From assembly GCA_000091205.1 (NCBI GenBank), contig AP006485.2: a stretch of DNA of 64,000 bases; one strand, given 5' to 3'. The first letter of the stretch is position 1, and the number at the start of each line of letters is the position of its first letter. A program made the position numbers and the translations under genes. The notes under the pieces are model-generated. The model ran no database searches. It was not told the DNA's origin and worked only from the letters and a program-made list of their open reading frames with translations. Origin of the DNA: Cyanidioschyzon merolae (taxonomy: Eukaryota). Positions 9,678-64,000 of this stretch are shown one piece after another.

Positions 9678-9766
9678 CGAACTGGTGAAGGTCTTCTTCA
9701 TGGGCGCATACCTGGTCTCGAACCGCCCCTCTCAAGCGTGACCTTATCGCGCCTGCGACATAAGTC

Positions 9767-34138: not shown

Positions 34139-34275
34139 TTCCATTTTAGTTTGATCTTGGTCTGAAGCTCAGCCAGAGCTTTGTATCGTCTGCGCCGAGT
34201 CTCCGATTCTGATTCGGAATCTGTGTTGGCTAAAGCCTCACCGTTCAAAACTGAAATCTAGCTAGTCTTGCGTCT

Positions 34276-37005: not shown

Positions 37006-37570
37006 ATCAGATACAAGCTGAAAACTGAACTGTTCACTCACATCCTTTCTACCAGGTTTTCCGAGTATTTTTCGTGGACAGCCCCGCCGTGCAACGAGCA
37101 CCAACAACAGCTTACACATTCATGCACAGCTCAAGGATTCCCGATCGCCTCTTCAACGATAATTACCCGACGTCATCGCTCGGCGGCATCCTCTCAAGCT
37201 TATGCCGAAACTCCACTGATCTTGTCACGCCAAAGAATAACCCATTCCGTTCTAGAGACAAACCCTCATCCGCTCTTCGCTGCCGTCCACCATACACCGT
37301 TCCACTCCAGAATGATGCGCCTCACGGAGTCCGCGCCCTCGAGCGCAACCCGAACCGTTTAAAGGTCGACGCTAAGGCAGCCATGAGCACCCTTCGACTG
37401 CTGCCAGGGTGCCGGAGGGACGCAAGAGCCCAGCTCATAGAAAGCCGGATTTGGGGGCAGGAACGAGGATTATGAACAGAAGCTGAAAGAGACCGGAAAT
37501 GCTGGTGAGGATGGCAACGGGAAGCGATCCCAGCTGTGGAATGTATGCCCATGATAGGTGAGTGGACATG
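37006..37570 (+). mobile_element. RepC copy 2
   Basis: Identical 133 aa ORF translation (37074..37475) to copies 1 and 4. The terminal ...gtgagtggacATG abuts, and provides, the first ATG of the Hsp78 ORF. Confidence 0.6.
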
Positions 37571-39973: not shown

Positions 39974-40043
39974 TCACGCCCTTCTGTTACCGCACTATGC
40001 AGCCGTTTGAAGCAATATTGGCATAATAATACCTAAACCCTCA

Positions 40044-40607
40044 TCAGATACAAGCTGAACACTGAACTGTTCACTCACATCCTCTCTACCAGGTTTTCCG
40101 AGTATTTTACGTGGACAGCCCCGCCGTGCAACGAGCACCAACAACAGCTTACACATTCACGCACAGCTCAAGGATTCCCGATCGCCTCTTCAACGATAAT
40201 TACCCGACGTCATCGCTCGGCGGCATCCTCTCAAGCTTATGCCGAAATTCCACTGATCTTGTCACGCCAAAGAATAACCCATTCCGTTCTAGAGACAAAC
40301 CCTCATCCGCTCTTCGCTGCCGTCCACCATACACCGTTCCACTCCAGAATGATGCGCCTCACGGGGTCCGCGCCCTCGAGCGCAACCCGAACCGTTTAAA
40401 GGTCGACGCTAAGGCAGCCATGAGCACCCTTCGACTGCTGCCAGGGTGCCGGAGGGACGCAAGAGCCCAGCTCATAGAAAGCCGGATTTGGGGGCAGGAA
40501 CGAGGATTATGAACAGAAGCTGAAAGAGACCGGAAATGCTGGTTAGGATGGTAACGGGAAGCGATCCCAGCTGTAGAATGTGTGCCCAAGATAGGTGAGT
40601 GGACATG
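40044..40607 (+). mobile_element. RepC copy 3
   Basis: 133 aa ORF at 40111..40512 with one substitution (TFTHSS). Same termini as the other copies. Confidence 0.6.
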
Positions 40608-40868
40608 ATCTATTTTTCTTCTGACACAGTTGCAGCTGCTGCGCGAAAACAGCGCGTAAACAGAGTGGCCTCGCTTTCAAAGAGCTACGTCAGACACTGT
40701 GATTTTAGGCGCTCGATATCTTAGCGCATAACTTAAGCTTCATAAACTTAGTGGGTAACTGCACACGAGCGCAGTAGCGTGCCCACGTAGCAGCCTGCTG
40801 CAGGCACGAATAGTTCACGAGAGGCAGCGTTTGCTTCGAGTGCTCGCACAAACGAGGCGTCAGGCCTC

Positions 40869-41501
40869 ATGGGAGGCCGCCAAAGCAAACCGCACAGCAG
40901 CTCTCCGCCTGGAGCCAAGCAGCGACACACGGCACTGGAGCAGAGCTTGGTGCAACCTAGAGCCTACACAGACAATGAGTGGGACGAGGTTATTTCACGC
41001 GTTCGCGCTCACGAGCGGCAGCTATTCTCCAAGAAACAACAGCTCTTTGAGGCGGCAAGTACCGCATACAAAAAAGGACAGGGAGCAGAGGCAAAGCGGC
41101 TCTCTCGAACTGCTCATCAAACCGATGAGAAGTATCGGAGGGCACGTCAGGAAGCCTCGGTAACAATTTTGCACCTAAGGAACCATGGGAAACCTGCGGA
41201 TACTTTAGACCTACATGGCCAATATGTTGAGGAGGCTCTCTCGTTCACCAAACAACGACTCAAGGAGCTGCGGAATATAAACAATGCGCAACGTACATCG
41301 AGTCTGTTGATCATAACAGGTGCCGGACACCATAGCGAAGACGGTCGAGCGAAAATTCGGCCGGCAGTACTGAATTTTCTCCGGAAGAAGGGATATTCCT
41401 TCAAAGAAGAAGGTCCTGGGGCTTTCAGGGTTCATTTGGGCGCGGAAAGCACAGAGGGATGCTTCGCGTCTCTACTTCGGATGCTGGGCCTGAAAAAGTG
41501 A
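40869..41501 (+). CDS. DUF1771-Smr domain protein (second paralogue), N-terminal MGxxxS myristoylation-like start
   Basis: Smr domain: TLDLHGQYVEEALSFTKQRL...LLIITGAGHHSEDGRAKIRPAVLNFLRKKGYSF. A preceding DUF1771-like helix (EAKRLSRTAHQTDEKYRRARQEA) is present. The ATG is at 40869. Confidence 0.55.
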   Translation: MGGRQSKPHSSSPPGAKQRHTALEQSLVQPRAYTDNEWDEVISRVRAHERQLFSKKQQLFEAASTAYKKGQGAEAKRLSRTAHQTDEKYRRARQEASVTILHLRNHGKPADTLDLHGQYVEEALSFTKQRLKELRNINNAQRTSSLLIITGAGHHSEDGRAKIRPAVLNFLRKKGYSFKEEGPGAFRVHLGAESTEGCFASLLRMLGLKK

Positions 41502-41532: not shown

Positions 41533-42282
41533 TCAGTGCATATCCTGGTGAACGGATGGATTCAATGTCAGGTCATATGCCATGTCGGGATCCTCAGACT
41601 CGTGGTCGCCGCAAGGAACGAAAGCAGGTATCGCAGTTAGCTCTTCTCGAGAGCTCGCGTACGAACGCCCTACTGTGAAACCTCTACACACGATGAAACT
41701 CTCAAGGCTTGAATTACGGCTCGAACGGGGTTTTGCGATATACAGTTCCCGAAAATAGGGACGTATACGAGCATAGAGAAGCGCCGACTCATAGCCGCGA
41801 AATATTTTTGCGACGAACTTACCGCCTTCCGCAAGCATGGCTACGCAGAAACGGAGAGCAGCTTGAACAAGTTCGCACTGCACGTATTCGTCAAGATCGT
41901 GCAGACCTGTAACGTCAGGGGCACCGTCGCTAAGTACCAGATCAGCTCTGCGACCACCGAGTGCGCAACGAACACGCTCCAGCGTATCTTCCTGAGTGAT
42001 GTCTCCTTGCAGGGTACAGACTCCTGGAATGGGAGCTATGTCCTGCAGATCAACAGCAACGGCACAGTTTCCCTCCGAAGCGCTCTCTGGCAGACGGAGC
42101 TTCTGACTTACAACCTGCGACCAACTTCCAGGGGCTGCACAAAGATCAGCAACGGTGCGAACACCGGTAAAAATCCCAAACTCATCGTCCAGCTGAAGTA
42201 GCTTGAAAGCGGAACGAGCCCGGAAGCCTTCCTCTTTTGCTTTTCGGTAGTAAACATCCCGCTTATCCTTACTTCTCGTCAT
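41533..42282 (-). CDS. FtsJ/RrmJ-family 2'-O-ribose RNA methyltransferase (Trm7/FTSJ1-like)
   Basis: MTRSKDKRDVYYRKAKEEGFRARSAFKLLQLDDEF...DLCAAPGSWSQV matches the Trm7/FtsJ N-terminus and SAM-binding motif. The listed start is TTG; the ATG is at 42280-42282. Confidence 0.75.
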   Translation of the reverse strand: MTRSKDKRDVYYRKAKEEGFRARSAFKLLQLDDEFGIFTGVRTVADLCAAPGSWSQVVSQKLRLPESASEGNCAVAVDLQDIAPIPGVCTLQGDITQEDTLERVRCALGGRRADLVLSDGAPDVTGLHDLDEYVQCELVQAALRFCVAMLAEGGKFVAKIFRGYESALLYARIRPYFRELYIAKPRSSRNSSLESFIVCRGFTVGRSYASSREELTAIPAFVPCGDHESEDPDMAYDLTLNPSVHQDMH

Positions 42283-43372
42283 ACTATGAGCTGCGTGTGC
42301 AGGACTCGACAAGTAGGTCTACAACCAGAGCATTTGTTTGAATGTGCTGCGTCGCAGCCTTGCGACAGATGAGAAATTTCAGCTCTTCGTTGCAGGTTCC
42401 GCCGTGTCATGTCGTCTGTTGCATCTGCTATCCGATAAGCAGTGCATCTCATCATCACAGCTGGCCCAACCAGAATCGTTGAAGTTGCGCTACTCACTAG
42501 GAACGAAGTGCTCATACGAGTAGCCACGTCCCAGCTGACAAGCATTTATGGCACAGCCTTCGTGACTCATTCCTTTGTCCCCTACAAGTGCTTGAACATT
42601 ATCGCCTTAAGATGAAAAAAACACAAACGCGCCTGTGAAATACTGGTACCCTTCCTGAACCTGTGAGTTGGACACATATCGAGAGTTAGTCCACTGACGG
42701 TTGGGCACTCTGCCTCTGATACATAGTGGTGAATTGAACGATTCACCGCTCCGCGCCTTGGAACGCAGGAATAGCGCAGTAGCTATCCCTTTCCATCTTA
42801 TTTTTAGGTGCATGGGCGCGTGTTTAGTGCTAGAGCAGCTCAACAGCGTCAATTCGATACGAACAAGGTAGTCGCACTTCAGGGGTCATAAAGGTCTGTA
42901 AGGTTCGCGGTACTGTCGCGACGGCACTCGAGGTACGCTTTGACATCGTAGAGCTGCAAAGCCTAATCGTTGGTTCGAAGGGATAGCTAAATCGGTGTAG
43001 TACTCCATCACGATACGCAGCTCCAAATATACTCGCTAGACGGCTACAGTTGCGTCGTTGTAGCGGCATTGCAGGCCAACACAGGCAGTTCAGCATCAAT
43101 ATACACCGTCTTTGCGAGCAAGGCGGACTTGTCTTACCTACCGGCACGGATGCTTCGAGGCTTTGTGGTAATGCTGGGCGTTTCGGCATCTGCGACGAAG
43201 CGCCGATATGCACCGGGGGGCGTCGCCGCTTAGTAGAACAAATAAAGATTCAAATCTTGCACTCCACAGAACAATGCGTTGCACTAGCAGGTGATAAACT
43301 AGCGGAGTTGCAGGCTGGAACCGAAAGCTTCCATGAAAAATATGCGAATCAGAACGAAACGCTATACCTGTA

Positions 43373-43936
43373 CCGGATCCAAACTGAACACTGAACTGTT
43401 CACTCACATCCTCTCTACCAGGTTTTCCGAGTATTTTTCGTGGACAGCCCCGCCGTGCAACGAGCACCAACAACAGCTTACACATTCATGCACAGCTCAA
43501 GGATTCCCGATCGCCTCTTCAACGATAATTACCCGACGTCATCGCTCGGCGGCATCCTCTCAAGCTTATGCCGAAACTCCACTGATCTTGTCACGCCAAA
43601 GAATAACCCATTCCGTTCTAGAGACAAACCCTCATCCGCTCTTCGCTGCCGTCCACCATACACCGTTCCACTCCAGAATGATGCGCCTCACGGAGTCCGC
43701 GCCCTCGAGCGCAACCCGAACCGTTTAAAGGTCGACGCTAAGGCAGCCATGAGCACCCTTCGACTGCTGCCAGGGTGCCGGAGGGACGCAAGAGCCCAGC
43801 TCATAGAAAGCCGGATTTGGGGGCAGGAACGAGGATTATGAACAGAAGCTGAAAGAGACCGGAAATGCTGGTGAGGATGGCAACGGGAAGCGATCCCAGC
43901 TGTAGAATGTGTGCCCAAAATAGGTGAGTGGACATG
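43373..43936 (+). mobile_element. RepC copy 4
   Basis: 133 aa ORF at 43440..43841 identical to copy 2. The 5' junction is ...ccggatccaaactgaacactg; the 3' end is ...taggtgagtggacatg. Confidence 0.6.
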
Positions 43937-44940
43937 ATCCTTTTTCTTCTGGCATCAGAGTAGCCGGCTGATGTATGCGAGTCACCTTCGACCGCAACAA
44001 TTCCGATTTATGCAATGCTGTAAATGGAGCATGCATGAGCGACTGCAGTGGGAGCACCTATCAGTCGAGCAAGCGTTCTTCTTTAGAGCTTTTATGCAGC
44101 ACACGGGGCCTCTTTTGCTGATGACTGCTTCTGTCGGAGATCTTTTGAGCTGGGCTGAACCTGCACAGCGGGAACGTTTAGAGGAATGTTGCGCAGACCA
44201 TTACCCGGATTTTGAGACTAGCGTAGCTGCTCCAAATAGATGCCATTGGTGAATATTGTGTTCCAACTCAATTTCGTTTCAATTCCGCTGCGGAGTATAA
44301 CAGGAAATCGAAATCACTATGCAATGTATGGATTAGAGCGCAGACGAATTTCCTAAAGGATGTATTCTTTATCGAGCAGTGCGATGAGGACTGCACTCCT
44401 TGTTCAGGTTATTCATGCCCCAGTACTCAGATGCCAGGGAACACTGAAAGAAACGAGTAGATGCGCTTCAGGCAGAAAACCGATTCTCTCGAAGACTGCT
44501 TGCAGGTCAATGGTAAGAAAAGACATGTTGATCACGTAATGGTAAGCAAAGCGCGACGACTGCAGACGCCACTGGCGTCTCTTTTTCTCAACAGCCTGTC
44601 CGCGTGGTCCTGCAAACACCGGGATGAAGTCCCAAAAAAGTCCCACTTCACTCACGGCCATCTTCCATCGAAATCGCAAAGACAGATTATCATGATATTC
44701 GCGATCCGCATGGAGCAGAGGAACGTCGATTTGTTTTCTCAGACGATGATAGTTCCTTCGGCAGAGGTAGTCCGAGCGTATACGTTGTTTCTCGGAGATG
44801 TGGCCTTTGTATGTAAGATCGAACTTGAAGTGAACTCCGACATCATCTGTTCTAGCTGCAGTGGATTCTTTTAGAGGCCCCAACTTCGCTCATAGAGAAG
44901 GCTTATACAACAGCGTCCACGTTGTCGAATTATTCAAAAC

Positions 44941-45159
44941 TTGTACTTGACTTCTGGGGACGTCCATCTTTTAGACTACCTGGCAAGTGGCCATTACCCT
45001 TGCGTTCGAGCTATTGCGGATTCTGTCCGTTTTGAACTGCCTTCTTTCTCTCTTTACACTTCGTTTTACAACCCTATCGAAGGAGTATTTTGTATCCAAA
45101 AACGCAATGATCGCTCCGTTGCGCGAACCGGCCAGGCGTTCAGAATGGTGGCACACTAG
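44941..45159 (+). mobile_element. F4: short fragment of the TnpB/Fanzor-like family (RuvC-II region)
   Basis: YNPIEGVFCIQKRNDRSVARTGQAF against F1 FIPIEGVFCILKSNDHSTGRIAETF. Confidence 0.4.
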
Positions 45160-45666
45160 AGCACATTTCGTCTTCTCCCGCAAGTTCTTCTTGCCCCGGG
45201 GAAGTCCTCACCTGAACATATGAAGAAGTTCGTTCATTTTCAAATGTAATCTGGATAAGGGAAAGTAAGGGTATGGAAGGTGAGGATCCTGGAAGGCTGA
45301 CGTCGACCGCTGCTAGAAAAAGACGAAAAACAGTTTTAAACCCGGAAGAACAAGACAATACGAAGAAGCAAATAGAGAGGTCAGACTTCAAAGGCTGCAC
45401 AAAAGGCGACATTACGACGAGACGGTGGTGGAAGCAAGTCTTATTGGACATATCAAGGGTCTCCACGAGCCAAATTTGCAAGAGGCCATCACGAACTGTT
45501 CTGAGTCGTGCTCCAGTAATATTTGCAACGCTTCTTCAGGTCTGATGCATTTGGTCAGGGAGATGTATCGCGACGTGACGCATGTGGAAGCGGTTGAGAT
45601 TCCGGACGAGTTCTTCGACAAGACCTTTATTCGTCACCTAATATTTGGCACAGGAGGAACCTCGAC

Positions 45667-47440
45667 GTGAGACAATCGCTTGCTCGCCTTCTACGAATAT
45701 CACGCCGAATGCCGCTCCGACGGTACTCGATACAGGGGTTACCGGGATATTTACAGCCATGGAGCGATGGATTACCTCACGAACCTCAAGAACCATTTGA
45801 CAATGAACCTCGAAAGCTTCATGATTCGCTCCACCTTTGCATTCTACCGGGACCTGTCTCGCAAAGGAATATGGGCCATCATCGGTGTCATCACGAACGA
45901 CCCCATCATGAGGATGAGATCGAATTCCTAGACAAGAAGACGCCATTCTGGAGAACTAATGAAGGTTCTGTAATCCGTGTGGCTCTCGACGACCACCGTG
46001 CGGTACTTGGACTGGCGAATCCAGTAGAAAAGGCATCAGATATGCTAAAAGATGAAAAAATATTACCCCCTCATCCTGCACTCTTTCGTGATCCTGAACT
46101 GAGAGCTCGAACGCAAGGCCGGAATGGAGCACGGCCTGAAAGCAGATAGAGACGAAGAAGCGGAAGGGTTTTCTGCACGAGAAGCTTTAACTTCGTCCCA
46201 TTTTTCACAATCAAGTCATACTTTGTGACAATCGACTTGTGAGTCCTTTATGGCACAATGGAATCTGTCCGAAGTTCGATGTAAGCAGGGAGGAATTTAT
46301 AGGCGAGAACAGGGAGCCTTATTGGAAGAATATCTTCGATTTCAAATGTCTCGAAACGAGCAGGAAAACTTATTTGCCGGGACAATCGAACACGATGGAG
46401 TATGCAAACGTGTTCACTGTAGTAGCTTGAAGGTGGATCGTCGTATTTTGTCTTCGTTGTCGCCCATGAAGAGCCATGTAGGAAACAAGGAGGCGGGCTC
46501 TACTACGCAGGAAGTGCAGAAGAACGACTTCATTGTAAGCGTGGACCCAGGGAACACGAATATCGTTACCATCGCGGCATCCAAGTGCCGAAAAGATGGC
46601 GTCGATGGCAACTTATGCCAGAAAGACATGCGTCTTTTAAAGTTCTCGAGAGCGAGAAAACACGGAGAATCGGGAATAATGAATGCAAGGAAGAAAAGTG
46701 AGACGTGGGACACAGGAATGAAAGAGCATCTGGAAGCGATCATCCAGGTGACGAGTCGTGGAGCGGACTTTGAAGTTTTGCGAGAATTCATAAAATTTCA
46801 GAATGCTCATGACGAGGAGCTGTGGAAAGAGGATACAAAGCCGCTATGGGCTCGTCAGCGACTGAATCTGCTCGGAGGGAGGCAGCGTGCATTCGCCAAC
46901 TTTTTTCAATGAGTTGAGCGCCCTCAAGGAGGACAAGAGTCAAAGCTTGGTGATAGCATACGGAGCAGGGCACTGGGTGACCCAAAAGGGGAGCATACCA
47001 GCTCCATCGAAAAGAGCGCACAAGGAGTGCGCACTCCCTTTCGAAGTGATACCGGTGTATAAATTCCGAACCACATACCTGCATCATGAGGTGGGATGCA
47101 CAATTCAGAGGGGCGAAATAGAGAAAAGCAAGCGGAGCGCTGATAGAGCAGGAAATAGCACAAGGGGCACGAGTTCGAGAACCTCTTCCATTAGTCAGGT
47201 CAAGCAGCGGCAGGAAACGAATGGAATTCGTGAATTGAGACTTGAAACTACCTATAATATCAGGAGATGTGCGGTGCTTGAAGGGAGATCTCCGGAGCTG
47301 ACGCGAACGAACTTTGTGGAGCAGCCTCCGGGGCTCAATTTGTATTAGGAGAAGCTGAAGCCGGCAGCACGGCTGCGGACGAAACAGGTAGGGAGGTGCC
47401 TGCAGCTAGATACTAATTTCGCTTCCATGGTTGCGAAACT
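45667..47440 (+). mobile_element. F2: pseudogenised TnpB/Fanzor-like element (plus strand), frameshifted
   Basis: N-terminal homology VLGLANPVEKAS (compare F1 VLAVMQSLDTVEKS). RuvC-I with the Asp retained (FIVSVDPGNTNIVTIA). A frameshift lies near 46900 (AFANFF | NELSALK...VIAYGAGHW). The Zn-ribbon region is KFRTTYLHHEVGCTIQRG. A degenerate RuvC-III is split over two frames (MEFVN / TYNIRRC). The C-terminal LTRTNFVEQP matches F1 and F3. Sequence 3' of the stop resembles the RepC right end (agaagctgaa..ccgg..cagctagatact). Confidence 0.5.
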
Positions 47441-47570
47441 TTTTCGTTTCGAGAGGAGTTGACTCGCTGCGGTTTTTTCGCCAAAATCGTGGCTGCGAAG
47501 TCTCCGGAGAGCAGGCATTTTCAATAGTAAATTTAACAGCTTCCAAAGGTCCGACAGTTCCTTTCGCGGA

Positions 47571-50027
47571 ATGGAGTCGGACGACGAAGTGATAACTTGC
47601 GATGGACGGAGTGCGCTTCCTTCCTTAGCAGCGTACTCAGACGTTTCGGAGCATGTTGAACCGCTCATCAGATCGAAAGCTCTCCGTTTATACGAAGACC
47701 TGTTTTTGGCCTGCTCGGAGTGTCCGGATAGGTTTCCTTTCAACATCGCGATGGGCCTTCACGACTTGTATGTTTCGATTTTTCGGGCTCTAGCGGAAAC
47801 AGCCTCGGATCCAGGAGACTCTAGCGAACTCGGGAAATTACTTGCAGACCTGAGGTCTCAGCGTAATCTCTGGCTCTTATTGCACATCATGGACAACGCT
47901 GATTGTGAAGCTCGTAGAACAGTTTCTCAAAAACGTATGTCGCCCATGTGCACTCGGAGAGAGCGTCCTGCTGCTATCGACCAGCTCTCACGACAGATCT
48001 CGATTGATGGAAGCGGGTTCCTACCAAATCCGCTCGAAACGCTCCCCATGGTCACTTCCTGTCGTCGAGTGCTGGAGTGGCTGGAGCGTACGTCTGCACT
48101 GGACCTCGACTCCTCCATGGGGGCACACTATGCTGCACTGGCTGAGCTGGGAAGTCTGTGGGATCCGTCATATCGCTGGGGGCTCTCCCTGACCAACGGC
48201 ACTGCATTTGACATGGACGCTCCGTTTCGTGGTGATCTGCGGCTAGCTGATGAGGATTTAGAGGCCGATGAGCGAATCTGCCGGGCTTGCTTTGGCCTTC
48301 TCCGCTGCGGTCGACTAGAGCATGCTCTAGAGCTGCTGCGACGCACTGGTCAGCACTGGAGGGCGGCGCTTTTCCAGGGAGGCCATTCTGCAGCCCTGGA
48401 AGCGGCCGACGGATCAGATGGTTCGCACTGGATTCTTTGGCGAAAGATGGCTCGTGACATCTCGAAGCTGGATGTGCAGAACTTTTGGGAGCGTTCAATA
48501 CTCTGCCTGCTCTCGGGAGGAGCGGTGCCAGTATCTCTGCTTGACGCACCATCCATGGAGGATCGGTTATGGGTTCGACTTTGGAGCCTTTTAGATGAAT
48601 TCATCGGAAGTCGATTGGCCATCCTGTTGCGAGCCAGTACCAACCAAAGCACGTACTTGGAATCTCAGAAGCCGTCGAGCATTACATCATCCGAGGAGAC
48701 AATTTTTTCAACTGCTTCGGACATTCCAAACGAAAGTTTGTTTAAGGCTATCAAGGAAAGTGGGACTCGGGCAGACTCATCAAGGGCCGCGCAGCTTTTC
48801 GCCATTTTGCCACTAATAGTCGATCCGAGCACACGCTCGCAGGAAGAAATCCTTCGCACTTTACTGAAGAATGCCCGTGACACGTCAGAGTCACCGTCAG
48901 ATTTTCCGGATGATTCGAGCGATGAGCGGATTGTAAGCGACCTATCCCATTTTTCGCTCTGCATTGCCACTCATCTCCATTGGTATCTAACCGCTTCGAA
49001 ATCGGATGGTTGCTGCTCGGAGACGCACCTTTTAGGGGACTTACTTCTATGTGCTTTTATTCAACGGTTAAGAGAGTTTAGCGGGAAATGTGAATCATTT
49101 CTCGACTTACTGGCGCGTTATACTTTGGCCATTTCTGCAAAAGAGCTGCGAATTAGGGCAGTTATCCGTCTCTTATGGAACAGTCCCATCGCTGAAATCC
49201 GTGACATAATTTCTGCGGTTGATGAAGTTTCGCGTTCTAATGAAGAGGCCGAAATATTCGCAGATATTGTTCTTGAGTTTTGGAGCTTTGCTTGGACGCA
49301 TGTTCGGGAACAGCTGCGCTCTGGAGTGGGATCCGTCGATGAAAAGGACCTCCACAGGCTAGAGTATTGCCTCGATCTGCTCAAGGAACTTGGTGATAAC
49401 TTTGCTAGCGTCCACGCTTCCAGTTTAATGCAGGTTATAAGAGAATTTTACTCAAAAGATCAAATTTCAGCTACGAAATCGATGATACGGAGAGAGCGCG
49501 AGAGTGGCCATCCAAATATAAGGCTCCAAGAGGACGCAGAGTGGCAGTGCTGGTGCGCGCTTCTTGAAACAGAGGATCTCTACCTGCAGTGGACGGACTA
49601 TATGTTCGACCGAGGCCCCACTCGAAGACCCCGAAGACCGCAGAGTGACGACATCTCCGAGCTTGAATCGTACGAGATATCATTGCGTGAGTGGCTCAAG
49701 GGAGTTGATGATCTTGCTCTCCAAGCACTACACAGCTGCTTGAACTTGCTGCATGCAATTGCCTATCTTATACACGACCGGAATCTCGAATCCAGCTCGT
49801 CCGATCTAAGTTTTTGTGTCCGAATATGGTGCTCAAATCTTCTCTCCAACGTCTACGAAATCTCACAGAACCCAACGGCGTGTCGAGTCTTACCGCGTCG
49901 CGCAGACGTTTTTGTGGACTTGATGAGCTTCATTCCCCCCGAGACGCTTCGCTTATTGACGCAAAGATTAGGTCATGCTTGGACTGTCGTCAGGACGCGA
50001 AAGGAGCTGTCCATGTATGATCAATGA
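47571..50027 (+). CDS. Nucleoporin Nup107/Nup84-family protein
   Basis: 818 aa alpha-solenoid ORF. The segment ...CRACFGLLRCGRLEHALELLRRTGQHWRAALFQGG resembles the conserved Nup84/Nup107 GQxWRAA(T)L core. ATG at 47571. Confidence 0.45.
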   Translation: MESDDEVITCDGRSALPSLAAYSDVSEHVEPLIRSKALRLYEDLFLACSECPDRFPFNIAMGLHDLYVSIFRALAETASDPGDSSELGKLLADLRSQRNLWLLLHIMDNADCEARRTVSQKRMSPMCTRRERPAAIDQLSRQISIDGSGFLPNPLETLPMVTSCRRVLEWLERTSALDLDSSMGAHYAALAELGSLWDPSYRWGLSLTNGTAFDMDAPFRGDLRLADEDLEADERICRACFGLLRCGRLEHALELLRRTGQHWRAALFQGGHSAALEAADGSDGSHWILWRKMARDISKLDVQNFWERSILCLLSGGAVPVSLLDAPSMEDRLWVRLWSLLDEFIGSRLAILLRASTNQSTYLESQKPSSITSSEETIFSTASDIPNESLFKAIKESGTRADSSRAAQLFAILPLIVDPSTRSQEEILRTLLKNARDTSESPSDFPDDSSDERIVSDLSHFSLCIATHLHWYLTASKSDGCCSETHLLGDLLLCAFIQRLREFSGKCESFLDLLARYTLAISAKELRIRAVIRLLWNSPIAEIRDIISAVDEVSRSNEEAEIFADIVLEFWSFAWTHVREQLRSGVGSVDEKDLHRLEYCLDLLKELGDNFASVHASSLMQVIREFYSKDQISATKSMIRRERESGHPNIRLQEDAEWQCWCALLETEDLYLQWTDYMFDRGPTRRPRRPQSDDISELESYEISLREWLKGVDDLALQALHSCLNLLHAIAYLIHDRNLESSSSDLSFCVRIWCSNLLSNVYEISQNPTACRVLPRRADVFVDLMSFIPPETLRLLTQRLGHAWTVVRTRKELSMYDQ

Positions 50028-51520
50028 AACGAAAATGTTCTGACCATACAGTGCATAAATACATCCACTTCCAAACGCCTCCGAGCCTCGTTTGACGGCC
50101 CCCGGCTACCTGCTTGAGCTTTCCCTTGAGCAAATCGAGCGTGAGAGGCTGCCCTACAAAATTTGACCGCCCCAGCTCCTCGGGGCTCGTATTCTGCACC
50201 ACACGTCGTCTGATATGGATGGACGCAATGAAGTCTCGGCTCTCGAACTCCACACGTTTATTGCCTCTGGTGGAACTCGCAATTGCAAGGATAGGTAGAC
50301 CTCGTGCACTCTGTGCCACTGCGGCTTCGTCATGCTCTCATTGCGCGAACACATTTCCCCACCTATCTCCCCTTTTCTTACCCTTCTTCTTCGTCACTTG
50401 CTCTTCTTCGCTCGATTGCCGGCGAGAAGAGGATTTTTCGTCCATCCCCGACTACCGAAGATAACCGCATTCCGGGGCCCACGAGTTGCGTATCGATACC
50501 GTTCCCTTGGAATTTTCGTTTCTTCAACTGAAGACACTGCTCTATGCCGTTAGGTGAGGACCTTCCCGCACCGAGCAGCACATGCGGAAGAAAGACAAAA
50601 TGCGCCCCGATGTGTCACCGTGCGCTGAATGCTTCAGCGATTCGCCCGGTGGAACGGTCATTAGGTCTCACGATAGAAAACATTCCGCCGATGCAGTTGG
50701 AACACGGAGCGCACGGAGGAATGAAAAGCAGCTTTGCCCCGAGAGAATCAGCAAAAGCTCGACCGCAAGGGTAATAATGAAATGTCACGCTGTCCAAGAG
50801 AAGAATATCGCCAGACGCCAGGGGAAAAGTCTTTTGTGATTTGACGAAGTGGTTGGTGCTGCTGTATGAGCCTTCTCTACGAGCGAAAACCGAGGCATCC
50901 AAATGAATCCACTCTAGCGAGAAGAGATTGGTCCGCGCTCTCTTCGGGTTCGATCGTGGATACATGGGGCTCCCTGCCCCGCGAATACCCATGTACATTC
51001 CGACCGATTCTTCTGGAACAAGTCTCATTGGCTGGAAAAATGAACCGACGTCCCTAAGGATCATACCGATTGAGACGTTCTAGGAACACTGTAGATGCGA
51101 TTTTGGTGCAAGATGGCCGTGACTGACGTTGGAACTTTTCTGCGATTGTACCCATCGTTTTCAGGATCAGACGAATTTGCTGTTAAGAAACAGAGATGCC
51201 CCAGGTGGCTTCGATTGAGGGTTTTACTTTCAGCAAAAGATTATCAATGATCCGTTTTCTACCATTTACAGAAACCAGTCCTTGAGAATGATAGTTTTTG
51301 AGCGCAGCTCGTATACTTGTTTCGTTCAGTGGCCCTCGACCATCTGGTTTCTGTGGTGTGACTGACCTTAATGTGGAAACCAGTCTTTCTTGCATTATTA
51401 TGTAAAGAATCTATTCTACAGGCGATTAATCTAAGATCTATGAGGTACGTTCGATAGTGACTTCGATCTCCCGCTAAATACCGCAGTAATTTGGAAAAGA
51501 ATTGAGCTAGAAGAGTCGAA
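49990..51520 (-). mobile_element. F3: pseudogenised TnpB/Fanzor-like element (minus strand)
   Basis: N-terminal ORF 51183..51395 (…SIRAALKNY, compare F1 SIRRRLVDH). YMGIRGAGSP is a RuvC-I with the Asp lost. FADSLGAKLLFI is present. A degenerate RuvC-III KRVEFESRDFIASIHIRRR is followed by LGRSNFVGQPLTLDLLKGKLKQVAGGR. The left-end DNA at 51400-51515 is colinear with F1 30700-30845. Confidence 0.5.
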
Positions 51521-53890: not shown

Positions 53891-54488
53891 AAGTCAGCAC
53901 TAAATGGAAAAGATCTACGCAGACTGACACCGGCGTACATTCTCGTGTTTGGGTTGCTTCCCAATGAAGTCCAAACCAGCCTTTGAAGTATTTTTCTCTA
54001 CATCCGCTTCCTTCTTGCTCGATCCTGGTACCGACTTTAAATACGCTTGTTTCACATACAACTCCAGTTTTGATGGTAGCAGCCGAAAGATGTTGATGGC
54101 AGTGTTAGGGTCCCTGTTTCGGTGCCTCCGCCTGTAGTCCCAGCATTTGATGCTCATATGGCATTTGCCATCTGCGTTGAGCTCGCCAGTTTTATAATCG
54201 CTGTACATTGCCTCGTTGCGCTCTTCGTGGATGTGAAACTATTCTGCGGTTAGGTGTTCCTATGCGTCCACCACAGCTCGCAATCCGTGGGCGGCCCTGT
54301 GGCGCTTGAATGCTTGCGTCAGCGTATGGTCCACGTCGTTGATGGGTACAGAAGGCTCTCCTCGGTGCCGTCCGCCAATTCCGCGCCCGATACCGTACCC
54401 AGCAATCAGGAGCTTTTTCCGCACGACAACCTCAACGAGTGTTCTGTCCGGCGCACACGCAAGTTTATGGTCTTATTTTTCGTAAGGG
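53891..54488 (-). mobile_element. RepD copy 1: second TnpB/Fanzor-like family, 3' portion (Zn ribbon + RuvC-III)
   Basis: Minus-strand ORF 53915..54208: ...GKCHMSIKCWDYRRRHRNRDPNTAINIFRLLPSKLELYVKQ matches the C-x6-C...R-D-x-N-x-A-I-N-I signature. An upstream frame encodes KKLLIAGYGIGRGIGG...TQAFKRH. The copy is truncated relative to copy 2 at about 54488. Confidence 0.5.
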
Positions 54489-54784
54489 CACCATTCGGAA
54501 CGCTGGAGGGGTCCTATTCTCCCCTGACGAGAAGACCGGATCACGTGCTGGGATCAAATTGAAATTGGCGTTGCGATTTTGCGCTTTGCCGACAAATTAA
54601 ATTCGATGGCCGAAACCATTTCCGAAAGTTTGCGCATTGCCCGCTGGTATTCACAGAAATTTACTAGAATATTGTTCGGAGAAAGAGTCATTTTTATTGT
54701 AAAATGCTTTACGTTCGCATCGATATTATTCCCGACGGATAATTTACTTCAGGAAATGTTTGGCACGCCTCTACCGCGCGGTCT

Positions 54785-55699
54785 CTAGATTTCATGGAAG
54801 ACTATATCATGCTTTTCGTGCTTAAATAGATACTTCCGGTCACCTTCTGCTTCATCTGTTGGTTTCAATATTTTTAAAATCCCTGTGGCATGACGAGAAT
54901 GGCCGGATGCAAATCTCTCAACGCAGAATATCCGATCCGCTCGACTTCGTAGTTGCACGAGATTAGCCCTCTTTTCCATATCTTTATGAACCGCCAAAAG
55001 GATCGCAAGCGAGGGAACAGGAATCTCATTCGATTCCCTTCTGACCCAGTCCAAAAAGGAGATAACTGACGTCGTGTCGTCATCGACGAGCCGTTGGACA
55101 CCTGTTACACTGTGAATCACAAGCAGCGTACTACTCGTACGCGAAACGCTTTCTTGTTGGTGATATCCAACAACAAAGTGCAAGAATTCTTCAATACTAC
55201 TCCAGTGTTCTTTCGCATTGCGCACCTCCTCCGTTGTAGTTCTCACTGTGCACAGCTGTGGACCATCCGGCAGGCTTTGCCAGCTGTCAATGACGAGACG
55301 AGGCGTTGACACTGGAGCAGTGGAGGAATCCCTCCCTGAATAGTCGCAGGAAAAGCGGAAGAAACGCAATCTCGAAAGCGGCCTGGAGTTAGAGTCCTGT
55401 ACTTTGACCGCAGCACTTCCGTGTTGCCTTCCTGAATCTCGAGTAAAGAAGCTGGCGATTTCTTCCGTATCCACAACAACTATTTCAAGGTTTGAAAAGC
55501 CCGTGGCTTCTTGCAAAACCTTGACCACAAAAGGGGTTGCCGAACACTGCGCCTCGTCTTCAAGGAGAGTCACAAGTAACCGAGATACGCTTTGATCAGT
55601 GCAGGTTTCGTACTGGCTCCACCAAAAACTTGGAAATCCACAAGCCGCCGCCGTTGTCTTGTCCCAGCCAATCGTACTGGCCAAAAAGTCGCGCTCCAT
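54785..55699 (-). CDS. hypothetical protein (304 aa)
   Basis: Long minus-strand ORF with protein-like composition. No domain recognised. Confidence 0.3.
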   Translation of the reverse strand: MERDFLASTIGWDKTTAAACGFPSFWWSQYETCTDQSVSRLLVTLLEDEAQCSATPFVVKVLQEATGFSNLEIVVVDTEEIASFFTRDSGRQHGSAAVKVQDSNSRPLSRLRFFRFSCDYSGRDSSTAPVSTPRLVIDSWQSLPDGPQLCTVRTTTEEVRNAKEHWSSIEEFLHFVVGYHQQESVSRTSSTLLVIHSVTGVQRLVDDDTTSVISFLDWVRRESNEIPVPSLAILLAVHKDMEKRANLVQLRSRADRIFCVERFASGHSRHATGILKILKPTDEAEGDRKYLFKHEKHDIVFHEI

Positions 55700-55913
55700 A
55701 TCCAGTACGAGAGTCTGGCACTTTTAAGTGCATTCCCAATCCACGCAGGCGTCGGAATTCGCTCTTCCCCAGGAGGATCGTCACCCCGATTGATGTAGTG
55801 TCCCGTGAGGCAGTTTCCTTACGGCCGCGTTCTCGCTTAACGTGGTTCGCAACGAACGTTGATTCTGCAACACTGAGTCTATTATGATTGCACTGACTTA
55901 GAAAATCTCTAGT

Positions 55914-57149
55914 ATGCAAAGAGCGGCACAGATCCGATCATTGCTTAAGCGAGAGCAACTTACCAACGCAGGAGTTAGTTGCCCTGCCCGTGGCCTGGCA
56001 GAGTGTCTGCTTGGGAGAAACTCAAGCAGTTTTTCCCGGCAAACTGCCGTTATTGTCGGAGCATCTATGCGTTCGTTTTCTACAGAAGATGGCTTTTGTC
56101 GGGACGGGCAGCTCTCCCTGAACAACATTAGAGACCTGCCAGGCGCTCGAAAGCCGAAGAAACGTGTCGGTCGTGGTCGAGGCTCTGACTCCGGAAAGAC
56201 CTGTGGCCGGGGGCACAAGGGGCAGCATGCACGTTCTGGATCTTCTCTTCCCAGCAGGTTCTTTGAAGGCGGTCAGACGCCGCTAGTGCGCCGGATACCA
56301 AAGCGTGGCGGGTTTCCGCTAGTTGCACAAAGGGACCCGCTTCCTCTCAACTTAAGCCTCATCCAAAGTCTACTTGATAAGGGTCGCCTCCGCGTGAGCA
56401 AAGACGGTACTATTACCATGAAGTCGCTTTACGATTCGGGTGGAATCCTTCGATGCAGCAGAGCGAGGTTTAAGCTGTTCAACTATGGAGTCAAGCTGCT
56501 AGGTGGCGGTGCTAGGCAGTTCAGTGCACCTCTTCATTTCGAAGTTACGGACGTGAGTTCTTCTGCTCTCAGAAGGATACATGAATGCGGTGGCAGTGTA
56601 ACACTGGTGTACTACAATAGACTTGGACTACGGGCACTACTGAAACCCGAAAAATTTGACCACTGGACTGTCTTCCGCAGCGATTTGACGCATTTTCAAG
56701 GAGCAAACATCGATCCAAACACAAATCAGGCGATTGTTGTCTACGAGTATGACGATGTGCTCGAAAATGATGCATTATGGCCTCGTGGCGAACCGCTGCC
56801 GATTGAAGAGCAGTTCTCGCTTGATTTTGGAGCAACTTCGACCGATGAGAGCAAAACAGACCGGTTCACGCTGCCTTCCGACGAGCGTTTTTTTCGTATT
56901 TTAAGAAAGCTTTTCCATGATGATGAGAAGCTCATGTCGGAATTTCTCGCCAACACGCCGATGGATTTGGGCTCGATTCCATCGCAATCTACCCGACCGG
57001 TCATCGTGAAACGGCGAGTTCGCCTGCTTCCGAATCATGCGCGACCTCCTCCGAGGCTTCTTCTGCGCTATCCAGAATTCGATGCTTATGGCAGATCAGT
57101 GAATTTCTTGAAGCCGCGAGTGCCACTCGAGCATCAGGGAGCTCAATGA
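55914..57149 (+). CDS. organellar ribosomal protein uL15 (L15/MRPL10-type) with long C-terminal extension
   Basis: uL15 signature [34 protein letters not shown]...[21 protein letters not shown] at 55914. Confidence 0.7.
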
Positions 57150-58488
57150 AAAGGTATATCTGGTGGAATCAAGCGATACCTTCGCTCGTTATGTTAAAGC
57201 CCAACACAAAATTGACTGGTGCAGTTCTTGCTTGCGCTATTTCATCCAGAATGCGGTTGAAATCCGCAGCTGTGCATCCTTGGCATATCCGAGAGAGCCT
57301 GGCTGGAGACCCGTTTACGGTGCGTGAATTGTGTGGGTCTTATCAGGTGCATCGGTCGGAAGGTTTAGGTTCCCCAAATCAATCTTTCCTTTTTCCAATG
57401 TGAGTCATTGTTGTGTCACATGACTCGATTCTGTATCTTAAACACCTATCCATATTCAACTCTGGGTTGTCATTTCTGGATGCCGACTGATTGCGATAAA
57501 CATCCTCGCCAGGAGAAGGTTCCTGGGTTCCCGTAACAATTCTGTCGTTTGGATTTTCACGTATTCTAAACCGTATATCACTCATGCGAAATCTGGGAAG
57601 ATCGAAACTAAGAGCTCTATGCATTATGAGGCAAAAATTAGGCCATGTTGATCGTCCATAAAGGAAGCCGATGCACTTCTTGTATCATTCGCTGCTTGAA
57701 AATTGGTCGAAGAGTTCAACCTTCATTTTTGAGAGTGCATCATTCAGCGGGCGGTCATTCCGCAGTTTCGTTGCGTCACGGATTCGACGGATCGTTTGCG
57801 ATCCGTCGAATGGTATTCTTAGTGATGGAAACCATGAGCATGCCAGATCGTCTCAACTTGCTGAATGCGGAAGAATCATTTCTCTTTCAGATCAGAGAAC
57901 TTTCGAATTTATTTAACGTCGCCACCTCTAGAATCCCAGAGACTCGTGTGTTCGCGATTGACCTATCTGGCTGCCAGTTTTATTTATTCAGCTCATAAAT
58001 CTATGCAGCTGGCAAATGAGATGCCTTCCAATTGGCGAGATGGTCGCAAGCAATTGAGAATTGCGATGATATCTGTAAGCACTTTTGAGCTCTGTGGGTG
58101 TACGTATGAAATACCTCATTTGACGAGGATAGAGACGCACCACCGCATAACCTTGTGCGCTGTACAAGCCAGCACATTCTGCAGACCGTGATACCATCTG
58201 GCATGCGCTTTCTCATCGGAGTATTTAAGCTTCTGCCTGCAACAAAGTTTCGTTTTTTCTTCTGGGCCGCGTCCGCCAACGAAAGGAGACCACGACGAGA
58301 AATGTTGTCACGTTCGCATAGCGGGGAAGAGATGTTTGAACTCTGCGAAGATGCTTCATCGTGAATGATTTGATAAGTAGGAACTCTCTTAAATATACAC
58401 CTCTCACGGCGAGCGGATTCGACGTCTCTGCCCCAGACACCTGCAGAGCACGCAAGCAGCAGTCGCTGCGAACTGCTCGATCCATCAA

Positions 58489-59450
58489 AGTCAGCACTAA
58501 ATGGAAAAGATCCACGCAGACTGACACCGGCGTACATTCTCGTGTTTGGGTTGCTTCCCAATGAAGTCCAAACCAGCCTTTGAAGTATTTTTCTCTACAT
58601 CCGCTTCCTTCTTGCTCGATCCTGGTACCGACTTTAAATACGCTTGTTTCACATACAACTCCAGTTTTGATGGTAGCAGCCGAAAGATGTTGATGGCAGT
58701 GTTAGGGTCCCTGTTTCGGTGCCTCCGCCTGTAGTCCCAGCATTTGATGCTCATATGGCATTTGCCATCTGCGTTGAGCTCGCCAGTTTTATAATCGCTG
58801 TACATTGCCTCGTTGCGCTCTTCGTGGATGTGAAACTATTCTGCGGTTAGGTGTTCCTATGCGTCCACCACAGCTCGCAATCCGTGGGCGGCCCTGTGGC
58901 GCTTGAATGCTTGCGTCAGCGTATGGTCCACGTCGTTGATGGGTACAGAAGGCTCTCCTCGGTGCCGTCCGCCAATTCCGCGCCCGATACCGTACCCAGC
59001 AATCAGGAGCTTTTTCCGCACGACAACCTCAACGAGTGTTCTGTCCGGCGCACACGCAAGTTTATGGTCTTATTTTTCGTAAGGGCTCTGTGGAAAGCGG
59101 TGTCGTCCTTGATAAAGCGAGTACCGGAAGGAAAATCATCAAATTCGAAGATCAAGTCTGGAAGTTTCGACCCGAGAACGCTCTCTTTATGCAACCTGGC
59201 GACGCATTCTCCTGTGAAAGTGACTGCCACGATGACTGGAGTCCATCTCAAAGACCCTTTTCCAAGCACACGGCAGAGACGAGGGCCCCTTGGGGCATAC
59301 TCCGTGGTGCGTGTCATGCTGCAGGCGAATGCTGTTTCGTCGATGACCGCAAAAGAGTGGCGGGATTTGTCCCTCGAACGGGATCGATTATCAGAAGTGA
59401 CAAGTTCGGTGAACGCTCTGCATGATGTTGTGAGCAAGTCGTCAAAGGAC
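58489..59450 (-). mobile_element. RepD copy 2 (longer): TnpB/Fanzor-like family 2
   Basis: 58489..59087 is near-identical to copy 1, with the same ORF translations at 58497..58805 and 58546..58734. It extends upstream on the minus strand through ORF 59003..59437 (…SFAVIDETAF…), which may cover the RuvC-II region. Confidence 0.45.
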
Positions 59451-60054
59451 TAGGTTGCGTGCTTTTCCTCACCAATCCAACCGCGCGAATTGCTGCACCC
59501 ACGAGATGACCTGGAACAGAGTGATCAACAACTTGAAGAGCGCCTGGTTTGAGCATGCTGCGCATGAGGAAATGAGAAGAGTGGAGAATTATACGTCTGC
59601 ACTGAATAATGAGGTTGCTTATGTTCTTTTACGAACCATTGCTCGAGTGCTCTGCGAATCATCTTGATTGCGGCAAGGTAAAGAATTCCAGCGGCAAATA
59701 GTTGATGGAGCCACTTCGGAAAGACGACAGAGAATTCTAGAGCTACTTATGAATCCGTGCATCCTTATGGCTGCACTTTGAATGTCACGGCTGTACATCT
59801 AACAGAGGTTTGGAAAGATATCGAGAGGAAAAAGCTCCATCTAGTTCAGTGCTCCATGTTGATCTGACATGGGCGTCGTCGTCGAATGAACTCGTATCAC
59901 CGCTGTGCGCGTATCGGGGCCCGTGACTACGCGAGCTCGGGTTCCGCGCCGGCGAAGTTCAGACCGCGAGCTCCGTATTGGTTAATCCATCTTCGAGAGC
60001 CGCGACAAAGAAAGCTTTTCCAGGATAACTTTTGAGGCCGAATCTCGTACAGAA

Positions 60055-60708: not shown

Positions 60709-61067
60709 TTGTGGAATTATTAGAGGGCTGGCGCTCGTCGCAAGAATTTCACCACATTACTCCAGGTTGCGGCCACCGCTTAATGGGAAGTTTCCACAGG
60801 AGCAAGAGAGTTGATAGGTTTTTTCATTCGCATAAAATGAGAGTCGTGTTAAACATTCAACTCTAATGAACGGATATTCGAATTGTCGGAGATGTAGAAC
60901 GTGTTCGTCGATTTCTGTTTGAGGTAGCTTCGCACTCTGCGTGAACCAAGCTTTCAGGGTAGTTCTCCAGAAACGCAGAGCGCACAAAGCTGGGTAGTAA
61001 ATGTCCCGTCAGCGGGCGAGTTGTGGTTTTATGTTGCTCTCATGAGTATCAAAAACCTGGACCGGTT

Positions 61068-61718
61068 CTGCGATATCTCCTATGCGCTCATAGCGTTAAA
61101 CAAGGCGTTGTGCATTCGAGCGGTGTTAGGTCCCCTGTCAAGGAGCCCTGTGCAGAGTACCGCGGACGCACCACACAAAGGATACTGGCAAGCCGCAGAG
61201 GACGCTACGAGCGGGCAGCGTTTAAGGCGCGAGTCGCCCGCTCACGGACGCTCGAGGCACACTTCCCGAACCGGATACGGCTGCTAGCGAAGTATCGCTC
61301 CGTCGAAGTACTATGTCGTACCGCTGCATGCTCGTTCAGTTTCTCCTTTAGCAGTCTTTGGTGCCTCGGAAATCGGATCGCCTGCCTAGCGTGCCGTTTA
61401 TTGTCTGATCGGGTGGCGGTCGTCGACGACTACGCCCTACTGGAAACTACGGTTGCGGCATCTGTTGTTGTGGTTGTCGACGTAGTCGTCGTCGCTCACG
61501 CTGCTCATTACCGTGGATTACTGCAGTGCACTCTGCTGCATTGCTCTGCAGATCGAGCCGCTGCTGCGCGACGTAGTGCATACCAGGAGGCACGAGGCCG
61601 TCGGCGTGCGCACGAACACGAGGCTGTGCACAGCATAACTGTTTACGTAGGGCGTTGGTGCCAGGAGCGTTGTCTGGTCCAGGTGGTGAGCGGCTGTTCG
61701 CGACACTAGGTCGAACTG
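61068..61718 (+). repeat. RepB copy 2
   Basis: See RepB copy 1. It lies about 160 bp upstream of the NSA2 start, in the same orientation. Confidence 0.85.
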
Positions 61719-61875
61719 GCTTATTCAAGACGGCAGCCTCACTGCCTGATTTGCTGAAGAGTTTCTGGTCGCGTTTCCCACTGGAGCTTTCGCGTGACAA
61801 ATCCAAGTGCGCATCCGCTGGACCTCATAAGAGAGGAGCATCTTACGCTCCGACAGCCTTTAAATACGTTTGAAA

Positions 61876-62670: not shown

Positions 62671-64000
62671 CAGAGGACTCGTACACATTCTCATGCGTAT
62701 TCACATCACATTCGGAGGTGAAGCCCGCCCCGTAGTCTTTTCATCAAGTGCTCTCTTGGAACAAAGTTGTTTCAGTAATAATCATAAGAGATTGAAATTT
62801 TGCGGCACTCCACATCATACGGCTCTGGACGAAAGCCGAGTGTTCCGTGCATTTTGTTTGCATAATCGCAGCATTCCGATGAATCTGAAGCGTGTGCCGA
62901 AAGCTCGCAAAAATGGGTCTTACAGTGATATGGGTCACAATTCGCGAATTCATCGCGACCATGGAGCCGGCCATTTCAGTGGGCGCCACGAATGAATACT
63001 TTGCAGCGTTGGACAGAATACGGAAGCAGTCTCGCTTGGACACGATGAAGCCGACCGAAGACCCTCCTGCGGGCGCTAGCAATGATGGCTACATTTTTTG
63101 GGAGGGAATCGACATACATTCTCAGTAACTTTGTAGAATGGAACAAAAACATCGTTCACCAATGGCCCGGAAATCCGTTGCCGTAGTGCGAATAAGCGCC
63201 CTAGCCACGCTGGATTGCTGTACTCCACCATACTAGTGCCTTGTTCTAGGCAAGTATCCGTCTCCTCTTTTTTAGGCACTGTTTTTTTCATCGTGAGTCT
63301 TCAACGTTTCAGAATAATGTCTAAACTGAGTACCAAACGATTCTCTCGATTGTTTGCGCAAAACGAAGCCGCCATATGCTCTGGAACCACGTAACATCTC
63401 TGCATGTTGATCGACGCGTTCCATTCTCGGTACAGCAAGTGCTTTTACGTATTTCTGTTGGTAGAATCTCACCAAAGCATGCTGTTTACCTTAGATTGCC
63501 TCGCCGTCTGAGGTTGGGCGAGATACGAACCACTTTCTTGCACATCCATTTCTGTTTCAAAATATTCTTCTCTGAAAGTTTCAGCGTGTACCCACGCTCG
63601 CGAAGCGTGCTTGTCGTCTTGAAAGTCTTGACGGGAATCGCACAGAATCAATTCCTGCTTGGGCTGTGTGGTCTCATAGAACGAAGTGATGTGCAGGCAC
63701 TGCGCGCTGCAGCAAGTCTAGTGCCATAGCCTACAGTCAATCAACGAGATTGATAAGCTATTTCTTTTCTAACAACTTTGAAGAACTTTTCGATTGCAAG
63801 CATCATGTCGCCGTACAAACGAAACCGTTGGTGACTGCAGCCTGCTCTCGTGTACTCCGCCATAGGATCGTCTGCATAAGCTATTTTCACACGCACGTAC
63901 TCTCTGAATGAAGCGTGCAGCACATCGCAGTCTCCTCGAATCGGAGCATAGAGCGTGCAGATGGGTCCTGAAACCGGAATTCCCCTCGGTGGTACGCTTC

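Follow-up and report, generated by a model that had tools for sequence, protein, structure and literature searches.

One Fanzor1 family has been described in the alga Cyanidioschyzon merolae. This element, CMe-1A, is 3169 bp long and occurs in about 150 copies that are ~80% identical to their consensus; inverted repeats are absent and its class was reported as unknown (Bao & Jurka 2013, Mob DNA 4:12, PMC3627910). In the same work, the PUl-1 and PUl-2 elements of Pythium ultimum were found to carry Fanzor1 genes 3' of mariner-type transposases, and another group associated Fanzor1c with Mariner/Tc1 (Jiang et al. 2023, Sci Adv 9:eadk0171, PMC10530073). The present analysis deals with a 64,000-nt stretch of the nuclear genome of C. 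merolae 10D (contig AP006485.2, assembly GCA_000091205.1), hereafter the window, and with RepD, a 599-bp repeat found in it. The original prediction, made from the sequence letters, described RepD as a second TnpB/Fanzor-like family with two copies. Our results indicate that RepD is very probably not a gene but the 3' module shared by a family of decayed, non-autonomous DNA transposons, here called D.

As in PUl-1 and PUl-2, an IS630/mariner-like DDE transposase stands upstream in the D elements and is followed, in like orientation, by a Fanzor1 part that extends to the right end. The alignment of the D transposase consensus with the PUl transposases covers the helix-turn-helix (HTH), DE and D(D/N) motifs. 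However, the PUl elements are intact and have inverted repeats of 24-33 bp and TA duplications, whereas D is internally deleted and coding-dead, and neither feature is recognisable in it. CMe-1A resides in the same genome and is also a Fanzor1 family, and the D consensus has its C-terminal motifs AYG...GE/T.PT, VDEFRTS (conserved in position but interrupted in D), NRDxNAAINI and ERP..L. The two families are alike in being old, diverged and for the most part decayed, and clear inverted repeats or target duplications are seen in neither. At the nucleotide level, D resembles neither the CMe-1A consensus nor the F family, the other Fanzor1-bearing family of the window. The F copies, but not RepD, were matched in a sensitive blastn with the CMe-1A consensus and by an nhmmer model for 3' ends of the CMe-1A type. 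The D tail is only ~25% identical to the CMe-1 protein in the profile alignment. At its 5' end D carries a transposase relic, whereas the 5' region in the published consensus of CMe-1A is unrelated and TE-N2_CMe-like. The predicted separation of RepD from F, that is from CMe-1A, is borne out by this lack of nucleotide similarity and by the ~25% protein identity. Finally, D resembles the derivatives of cut-and-paste transposons that arise by internal deletion and are akin to miniature inverted-repeat transposable elements. One junction is common to all lineages, both ends are preserved in further-deleted forms of ~590 bp (S1-S4), and the copies are intergenic. Unlike such derivatives, D has termini that are not classical inverted repeats, and we infer its mobilisation in trans.

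The repeat joins two segments in direct orientation, 53891-54489 (copy 1) and 58488-59086 (copy 2), with a start-to-start distance of 4597. The copies are 99.8% identical (598/599), the sole mismatch being at offset 25 (53916 T versus 58513 C, plus strand), and their flanks are mutually unrelated on either side. The features of the two copies and of the sequence upstream of copy 2 are as follows.

58488-59086, minus strand: copy 2 of the repeat, 3' module of element D2, with a Fanzor1 C-terminal relic (frame 59069 to 58500, two in-frame stops) and the right end.
53891-54489, minus strand: copy 1, the same Fanzor-derived 3' module, 5'-truncated and with nothing upstream (repeat and nhmmer model).
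58686-58715 (copy 2) and 54089-54118 (copy 1), minus strand: RuvC-III motif NRDPNTAINI, aligned to NRDlNAAlNI of the profile.
58839-58871, minus strand: degenerate RuvC-II region VVDA*EHLTAE, aligned to VDEFRTT of the profile, with a stop codon inside.
58941-59009, minus strand: glycine-rich LLIAGYGIGRGIGGRHRGEPSVP, equivalent to the Fanzor1 motif VVAYGaAkFapGGkGE.SVPT upstream of RuvC-II.
59087-59822, minus strand: 5' part of D2, an IS630/Tc1-mariner-type transposase relic (DDE_3, IS630 and hhalign).

As had been predicted, the minus strand of both copies codes for ...GKCHMSIKCWDYRRRHRNRDPNTAINIFRLLPSKLELYVKQ... (open reading frames (ORFs) 53915-54208 and 58497-58805), and the 599-bp repeat with its single mismatch confirms that the peptide is held in common. 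Further upstream, beyond two in-frame stops, this frame also encodes the glycine-rich KKLLIAGYGIGRGIGG. Copy 1 has its stop codon because of the lone mismatch, and the shared sequence therefore ends 24 nt past the stop in copy 1 and only 9 nt past it in copy 2. The distance of about 24 bp given earlier is that of copy 1. The nhmmer family model covers copy 1 with its positions 765-1373 only (54494-53886), while copy 2 extends upstream, including SFAVIDETAF (59356-59327), and family homology continues to about 59820. Exact-protein look-ups of the RepD ORFs gave the same locus only.

The identity of the repeated tail was addressed with profiles. A phmmer search with the Fanzor ORF of the window (46250-46909) against 1.84 billion representative proteins gave 311 relatives, and Fanzor1 profiles were built from 58 full-length homologues aligned with CMe-1. 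With the C-terminal hidden Markov model (HMM), the D2 tail was matched as one colinear domain at 10.5 bits (E=0.036, Z=1906 six-frame window fragments). When aligned to the Fanzor profile by hhalign, D2 alone reached P=2.8e-5 and D2+D3 reached P=4.6e-6. The D2 score was 36.4, whereas the best of 200 shuffles, more than 17 score units lower, had 18.6 and the reversed sequence had 10.8. Taken alone, these D2 and D2+D3 matches are suggestive and not decisive. A majority consensus, built blind to the Fanzor profile, recovers much of the ancestral frames, and with it the tail scored 31.5 bits (E=1.2e-8) for three lineages and 40.3 bits (E=2.4e-11) for four (D2, D3, D4 and D5). Since true homology predicts that the score climbs with each lineage added to a profile-blind consensus, the additional family members decisively support the predicted Fanzor identity of the tail. 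In parallel, the four-lineage consensus was aligned by hhalign with 97% probability to CMe-1 residues 544-696, and BLASTP of the consensus tail against P0140, an intact homologue of 603 aa, gave E=4e-5 at residues 479-578. The similarity covers ~130-155 colinear columns and reaches beyond the RuvC-III motif alone. These comparisons show the repeat to be, as judged from its translated frames, the last ~165 codons of a Fanzor1 gene (eukaryotic TnpB-like, RuvC) together with the right end of the element. The portion kept in D corresponds to residues ~538-734 of 734, with a start at about 538-560, that is, the C-terminal ~165-190 residues.

That the tail came from a Fanzor/TnpB-like gene with a RuvC-III motif had been proposed in the original prediction, and the profile searches agree; the motif reads NRDLNGAINI in the consensus. 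The glycine-rich upstream frame, pointed out at the same time, likewise proved to be part of Fanzor, with its match to VVAYGaAkFapGGkGE.SVPT. Another candidate for it, a degenerate PPYSP.LNPIE third-motif region of the transposase, was dropped as the profiles place it on AYG...GE.SVPT and the tail-versus-transposase comparison gave P~0.4. The RuvC-II segment reads LVDI*EHLTT in the consensus; its position is conserved and it is broken by a stop or an insertion. The suggested pair of zinc-ribbon cysteines did not hold. A C-x5-C (CHMSIKC) is present instead of the canonical CxxC, and the first, partner pair of a C4 zinc ribbon is absent. Canonical CxxC pairs are mostly missing in the CMe-1 clade too, to which RepD aligns. 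No complete ORF was found, the D2 tail having two in-frame stops and a frame change at the junction and D3 many frameshifts. Pfam and NCBIfam gave no match with the tail or its consensus; this Fanzor1 clade is missing from both libraries. A stitched RepD protein retrieved nothing at E<=0.01 from 5.8 billion proteins, and pairwise tblastn of CMe-1 and of the PUl transposases against RepD was not significant. In the same tblastn comparisons, PUl matches at 41.0-42.0 kb are probably spurious; they lie in an ordinary ORF (40869-41501) and, in part, opposite in strand to the ORF at 41533-42312.

A hairpin is possible in the last 36 nt of D2 (58492-58527, minus strand; copy 1: 53895-53930), ending 2 nt before the element end, and the sole difference between copies 1 and 2 falls inside it. 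This hairpin had no support in a three-sequence consensus fold and was not clearly conserved in D3 or D4. The last 233 nt folded no better than shuffles (z=+0.63), and an Rfam search of the 3' end gave zero matches.

Upstream of the tail, the D2 relic spans an HTH region, a first Asp (IDE, 59341-59339) and a second Asp (KDD, 59107-59105); the second motif reads MDN in D3 and in the consensus. For the frame SFAVIDETAF...RGPRL...TPVIVAV...FIKDDTAFH, DDE_3 was the only Pfam match and stayed below threshold in single copies (E=0.068 for D2, 0.0062 for D3), while NCBIfam gave an IS630 family transposase (E=0.0012). With the four-lineage consensus, DDE_3 was matched at 38.8 bits (curated cut-off 28.6; E=1.1e-9, profile positions 5-102 of 146) and NCBIfam IS630 at E=1.3e-5 (62-237 of 299), and a Tc3-type HTH was found upstream (E=0.1). 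As these matches end at ~102/146 and 237/299, the third catalytic residue is deleted. By hhalign, the DE and D(D/N) motifs were matched to those of the Fanzor-associated mariner transposases PUl-1/2 (P=2e-4), and a control against the full Fanzor profile gave P=0.65-0.71. SFAVIDETAF is therefore the first catalytic Asp (DE motif) of an IS630/Tc1-mariner transposase. The earlier proposal that it may be RuvC-II is contradicted by its lack of similarity to the Fanzor profile. Copy 2 is longer on the N-terminal side, as had been stated, in the sense that homology continues upstream, but the extension is a remnant of a mariner-type transposase. The proposed extension of copy 2 in search of RuvC-I accordingly ended in this relic, and RuvC-I was seen in no copy. 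With the full-length Fanzor1 HMM and hhalign, no RuvC-I (DPG...N) was found, as nothing N-terminal of position ~538 was aligned for D2, D3 or the consensus.

The number of two copies was an undercount. When an nhmmer model made from D2, D3 and D4 was run over the window, nine family pieces were found; beside copy 1, they are given below, together with D4.

58488-59822, minus strand: D2, a full unit of ~1.33 kb, running from 59822 to 58488 (nhmmer 59860-58446).
1-1013, plus strand: D3, 57% identical to D2 and cut by the left window edge (family model, nhmmer 3-1070).
7171-8547, plus strand: D5, a full-length diverged copy (nhmmer E=9e-134, model 10-1379; tblastn with consensus transposase and tail).
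16078-17356, plus strand: D6 (nhmmer model), 99.4% identical to D5 across 16082-17297 only.
33573-34150, plus strand: S1, a further-deleted derivative of ~590 bp (model 392-565 plus 1130-1417).
37005-37585, 40043-40620 and 43370-43950, plus strand: S2, S3 and S4, sister copies of S1 (family model).
Outside the window: D4, a decayed copy (P0184, loci L015/L016; profile search).

A metagenome scan gave the D2 and D3 loci alone, in near-identical strains, and D4 came from the profile search; the first ~285 nt of D3 were found in locus L014 (3648-3932). D2, D3, D4 and D5 are pairwise 52-57% identical, colinear throughout, and have the same architecture and the same junction. The unit consists of ~740 nt of transposase at the 5' side (the N-terminal two-thirds, with the HTH and two Asp) followed by ~600 nt of Fanzor1 tail and right end. 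In D2, the transposase/Fanzor junction lies between 59071 and 59018, a short way from 59086, where the repeat has its inner edge. On the outer side, the repeat stops at or within 2-3 nt of the right end, defined as the homology limit of D2, D3 and D4. The position of the predicted right end is in this respect supported by three other diverged copies. The last ~290 nt were retained by every derivative. The best match between the element ends is 5-6 nt long (TCAGA...TCTGA) and the flanking dinucleotides are inconsistent. Stops and frameshifts occur throughout all D copies, and three protein or locus searches found no intact D-type relative. Nothing in the RepD or D copies would be able to act as a nuclease. 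The right end of D4 is directly adjoined by sequence that reads like a CMe-1-type Fanzor RuvC-I region, ...EADPATQKVHENDFVVSADPGKTKIVTIAASKR (L016 ~1180-1300), which places D4 in or beside a CMe-1A copy as a nested relic.

Neighbouring copies are far more alike than the lineages. Three sets of neighbours in the same orientation are near-identical, versus ~55% identity between lineages: copy 1 and D2 (599 bp), D5 and D6, and S1-S4. S1-S4 occupy four consecutive intergenic regions in one orientation and are 97-99% identical, with their differences concentrated at both ends. In D5 and D6, the identity tract covers 7269-8484 versus 16082-17297 (plus strand, 1216 bp, 99.4%) and stops ~60 nt short of the right end, the remainder fitting the family model yet being ~50% identical. 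This pattern is demonstrably the signature of gene conversion between older copies.

The chimera probably arose once, when a single internal deletion removed roughly 1.9 kb from a composite transposon with both a transposase and a Fanzor1 gene. This origin is suggested by the composite layout of the F element at 44.3-47.45 kb and of PUl-1/2. The deleted derivative would then have spread in trans as a non-autonomous element, and its decay would have followed its spread. One internal deletion with later spread and decay would be the simplest history.

Several observations weigh against the view of D as such a Fanzor1-containing derivative. No full-length D-type parent was found, and the deletion origin leans on the analogy with the F family; the D and F transposase relics have no detectable specific relationship to each other. 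Terminal inverted repeats and TA duplications of the Tc1/mariner type were not found at the element ends. The strong Fanzor scores depend on consensus reconstruction, and a single RepD copy is marginal against the Fanzor profile in the window-wide search (E=0.036-0.2). The weak single-copy profile values (0.02-0.2), with a transposase relic adjoining the tail on the same strand, would suit the idea that RDxNxAxNI is a chance motif and that RepD as a whole is a DDE transposase remnant whose C-terminus is the tail. This idea is extremely unlikely to be correct. The tail is unlike mariner transposases and the F-family transposase relic (control alignments, P=0.38-0.39), and its Fanzor similarity extends over the many colinear columns described above, with a score above 200 of 200 shuffles and E=2e-11 for the consensus. 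Nor is it at all probable that RepD represents a second TnpB/Fanzor-like gene family in which copy 2 reaches RuvC-II, with RuvC-I expected beyond it and intact members as a possibility. In favour of this interpretation, the RuvC-III-like motif is real, as is the colinear similarity to the Fanzor C-terminus. However, the upstream region fits DDE_3/IS630 and not the Fanzor profile, the true RuvC-II equivalent lies inside the repeat (58871-58839), the D copies contain nothing N-terminal of profile position ~538 with the full-length HMM, and the three protein or locus searches returned no intact relative. As every copy is a pseudogene, D is not a potentially working nuclease family, and the placement of RepD as a 3' transposon module is retained.

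The relation between copy 1 and D2 leaves more room for alternatives. Their near-identity most plausibly reflects a very recent local copying event rather than selection. A further point against conversion as its cause is that the identity reaches the ends of homology, which a fresh duplication fits at least equally. Because the tract fills all homology, an old 5'-truncated copy that underwent conversion would look the same as a very recent truncated duplication. Gene conversion or ectopic recombination between neighbouring members is slightly favoured, since conversion is directly visible in the sister pair D5/D6. Copy 1 could instead stem from very recent mobility: D2 would have been inserted anew, in 5'-truncated form, 4.6 kb away, and this would imply a live trans-acting machinery for the D right end. 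This is a tentative possibility that is consistent with the 598/599 identity up to the family right terminus between unrelated flanks, with the presence of the 3' ~290 nt in every derivative and with the report of intact Fanzor1 ORFs in some CMe-1A copies (PMC3627910). Against it, neither a target-site duplication nor an inverted repeat was found, the identity overshoots the CTGA(C) terminus of the other copies by 2-3 nt, no intact transposase of D type was found, and conversion is demonstrably active between the neighbouring copies D5 and D6. Finally, the two-copy structure might be taken for an assembly artefact, a collapsed or mis-joined repeat, since alternative paths exist in metagenome assemblies: the 59087 side is connected with the 53890 side in L006, and the 58487 side with the 54490 side in L004. 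We give this almost no credence. The window agrees with the finished sequence of C. merolae 10D, both copies occur in this arrangement on each of two independent 13-kb contigs (L001 and L002), L003 covers what lies between the copies, and short-read assemblers are expected to produce alternative paths at a 599-bp repeat. Local copying, with conversion slightly ahead, is therefore kept as the explanation for copy 1 and D2. L006 omits the 4-kb interval with the uL15m gene and L004 loops round that interval; these paths probably reflect assembler behaviour rather than copy-number variation.

The F family was compared with CMe-1A using the CMe-1A consensus and CMe-1 protein from the supplement of PMC3627910. 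Its copies in the window are listed below.

44261-47450, plus strand: the long F element, nearly full-length, decayed, of CMe-1A type (blastn/tblastn).
29431-30839 and 50020-51517, minus strand: short F copies, each a putative transposase relic with Fanzor residues ~582-734, internally deleted.

Positions 869-3085 of the CMe-1A consensus align to 45226-47404 with 76% nucleotide identity, and the CMe-1 protein matches the long copy at E=3e-178 (tblastn). On these alignments, the F family is the known CMe-1A element. The short copies are 64-68% identical mutually and to the long copy and have roughly the same deletion. A 5' part of ~1 kb is common to the three F copies (44261-45225 in the long one) and is missing from the published CMe-1A consensus. 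It matched Pfam DDE_3 (E=6e-4) and, by hhalign, PUl-1/2 (P=8e-4, with DE, DN and NP.E motifs aligned). This part looks like an IS630/Tc1-mariner transposase relic, which suggests a mariner-type classification for the class reported as unknown. Two segments, 1456-1723 and 18320-18384 (both minus strand), resemble (67-74%) the first 257 nt of the CMe-1A consensus, a TE-N2_CMe-like 5' region. With the full-length Fanzor1 profile, more divergent Fanzor1 relics were observed at 63304-63998 (minus strand, E=9e-6, cut by the right window edge) and 20576-21596 (minus strand, E=6.5e-5).

The genes around the repeat are ordinary nuclear genes, for mitochondrial uL15, PsbQ, Nup107, RPA1, ClpB and eS8. 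The products of three window ORFs are identical to the C. merolae 10D proteins BAM79054, BAM79057 and BAM79058. There is no protein accession between the uL15 and PsbQ genes (BAM79057, BAM79058), and D2 is therefore probably unannotated as a gene. The locus was also found in environmental contigs at 99.5-99.9% identity. Another direct repeat of the window, 653 bp long and 99.2% identical, joins 9033-9685 and 61067-61719 (plus strand) 52 kb apart and matches neither the D- nor the F-family model.

Fanzor1 in C. merolae (PMC3627910) and the association of Fanzor1 with mariner (PMC3627910, PMC10530073) are already published, and D adds a dead member. As there is no intact copy, it has no bearing on nuclease discovery, and the relevance of the D family is modest, mainly for transposon annotators. 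The right-end module (last ~290 nt) might still be used in cis, as a template for an omega/fRNA-like guide serving an intact Fanzor1 elsewhere in trans; this idea, prompted by the module being in every derivative and 97-99.8% identical between neighbouring copies, is a long shot. If it were true, RNA-guided breaks repaired from a neighbour copy would look like the conversion and local copying observed, and the apparently dead relics would be substrates of active Fanzor homing in a eukaryote. More directly, D is a second, very divergent Fanzor1-derived family for a genome with one reported family, CMe-1. The D and F copies together link the Fanzor1 elements of C. merolae, whose class was left unknown in 2013, to IS630/Tc1-mariner transposases. 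In the D copies, this very compact algal genome also offers a clean local case of concerted evolution among old transposon relics.

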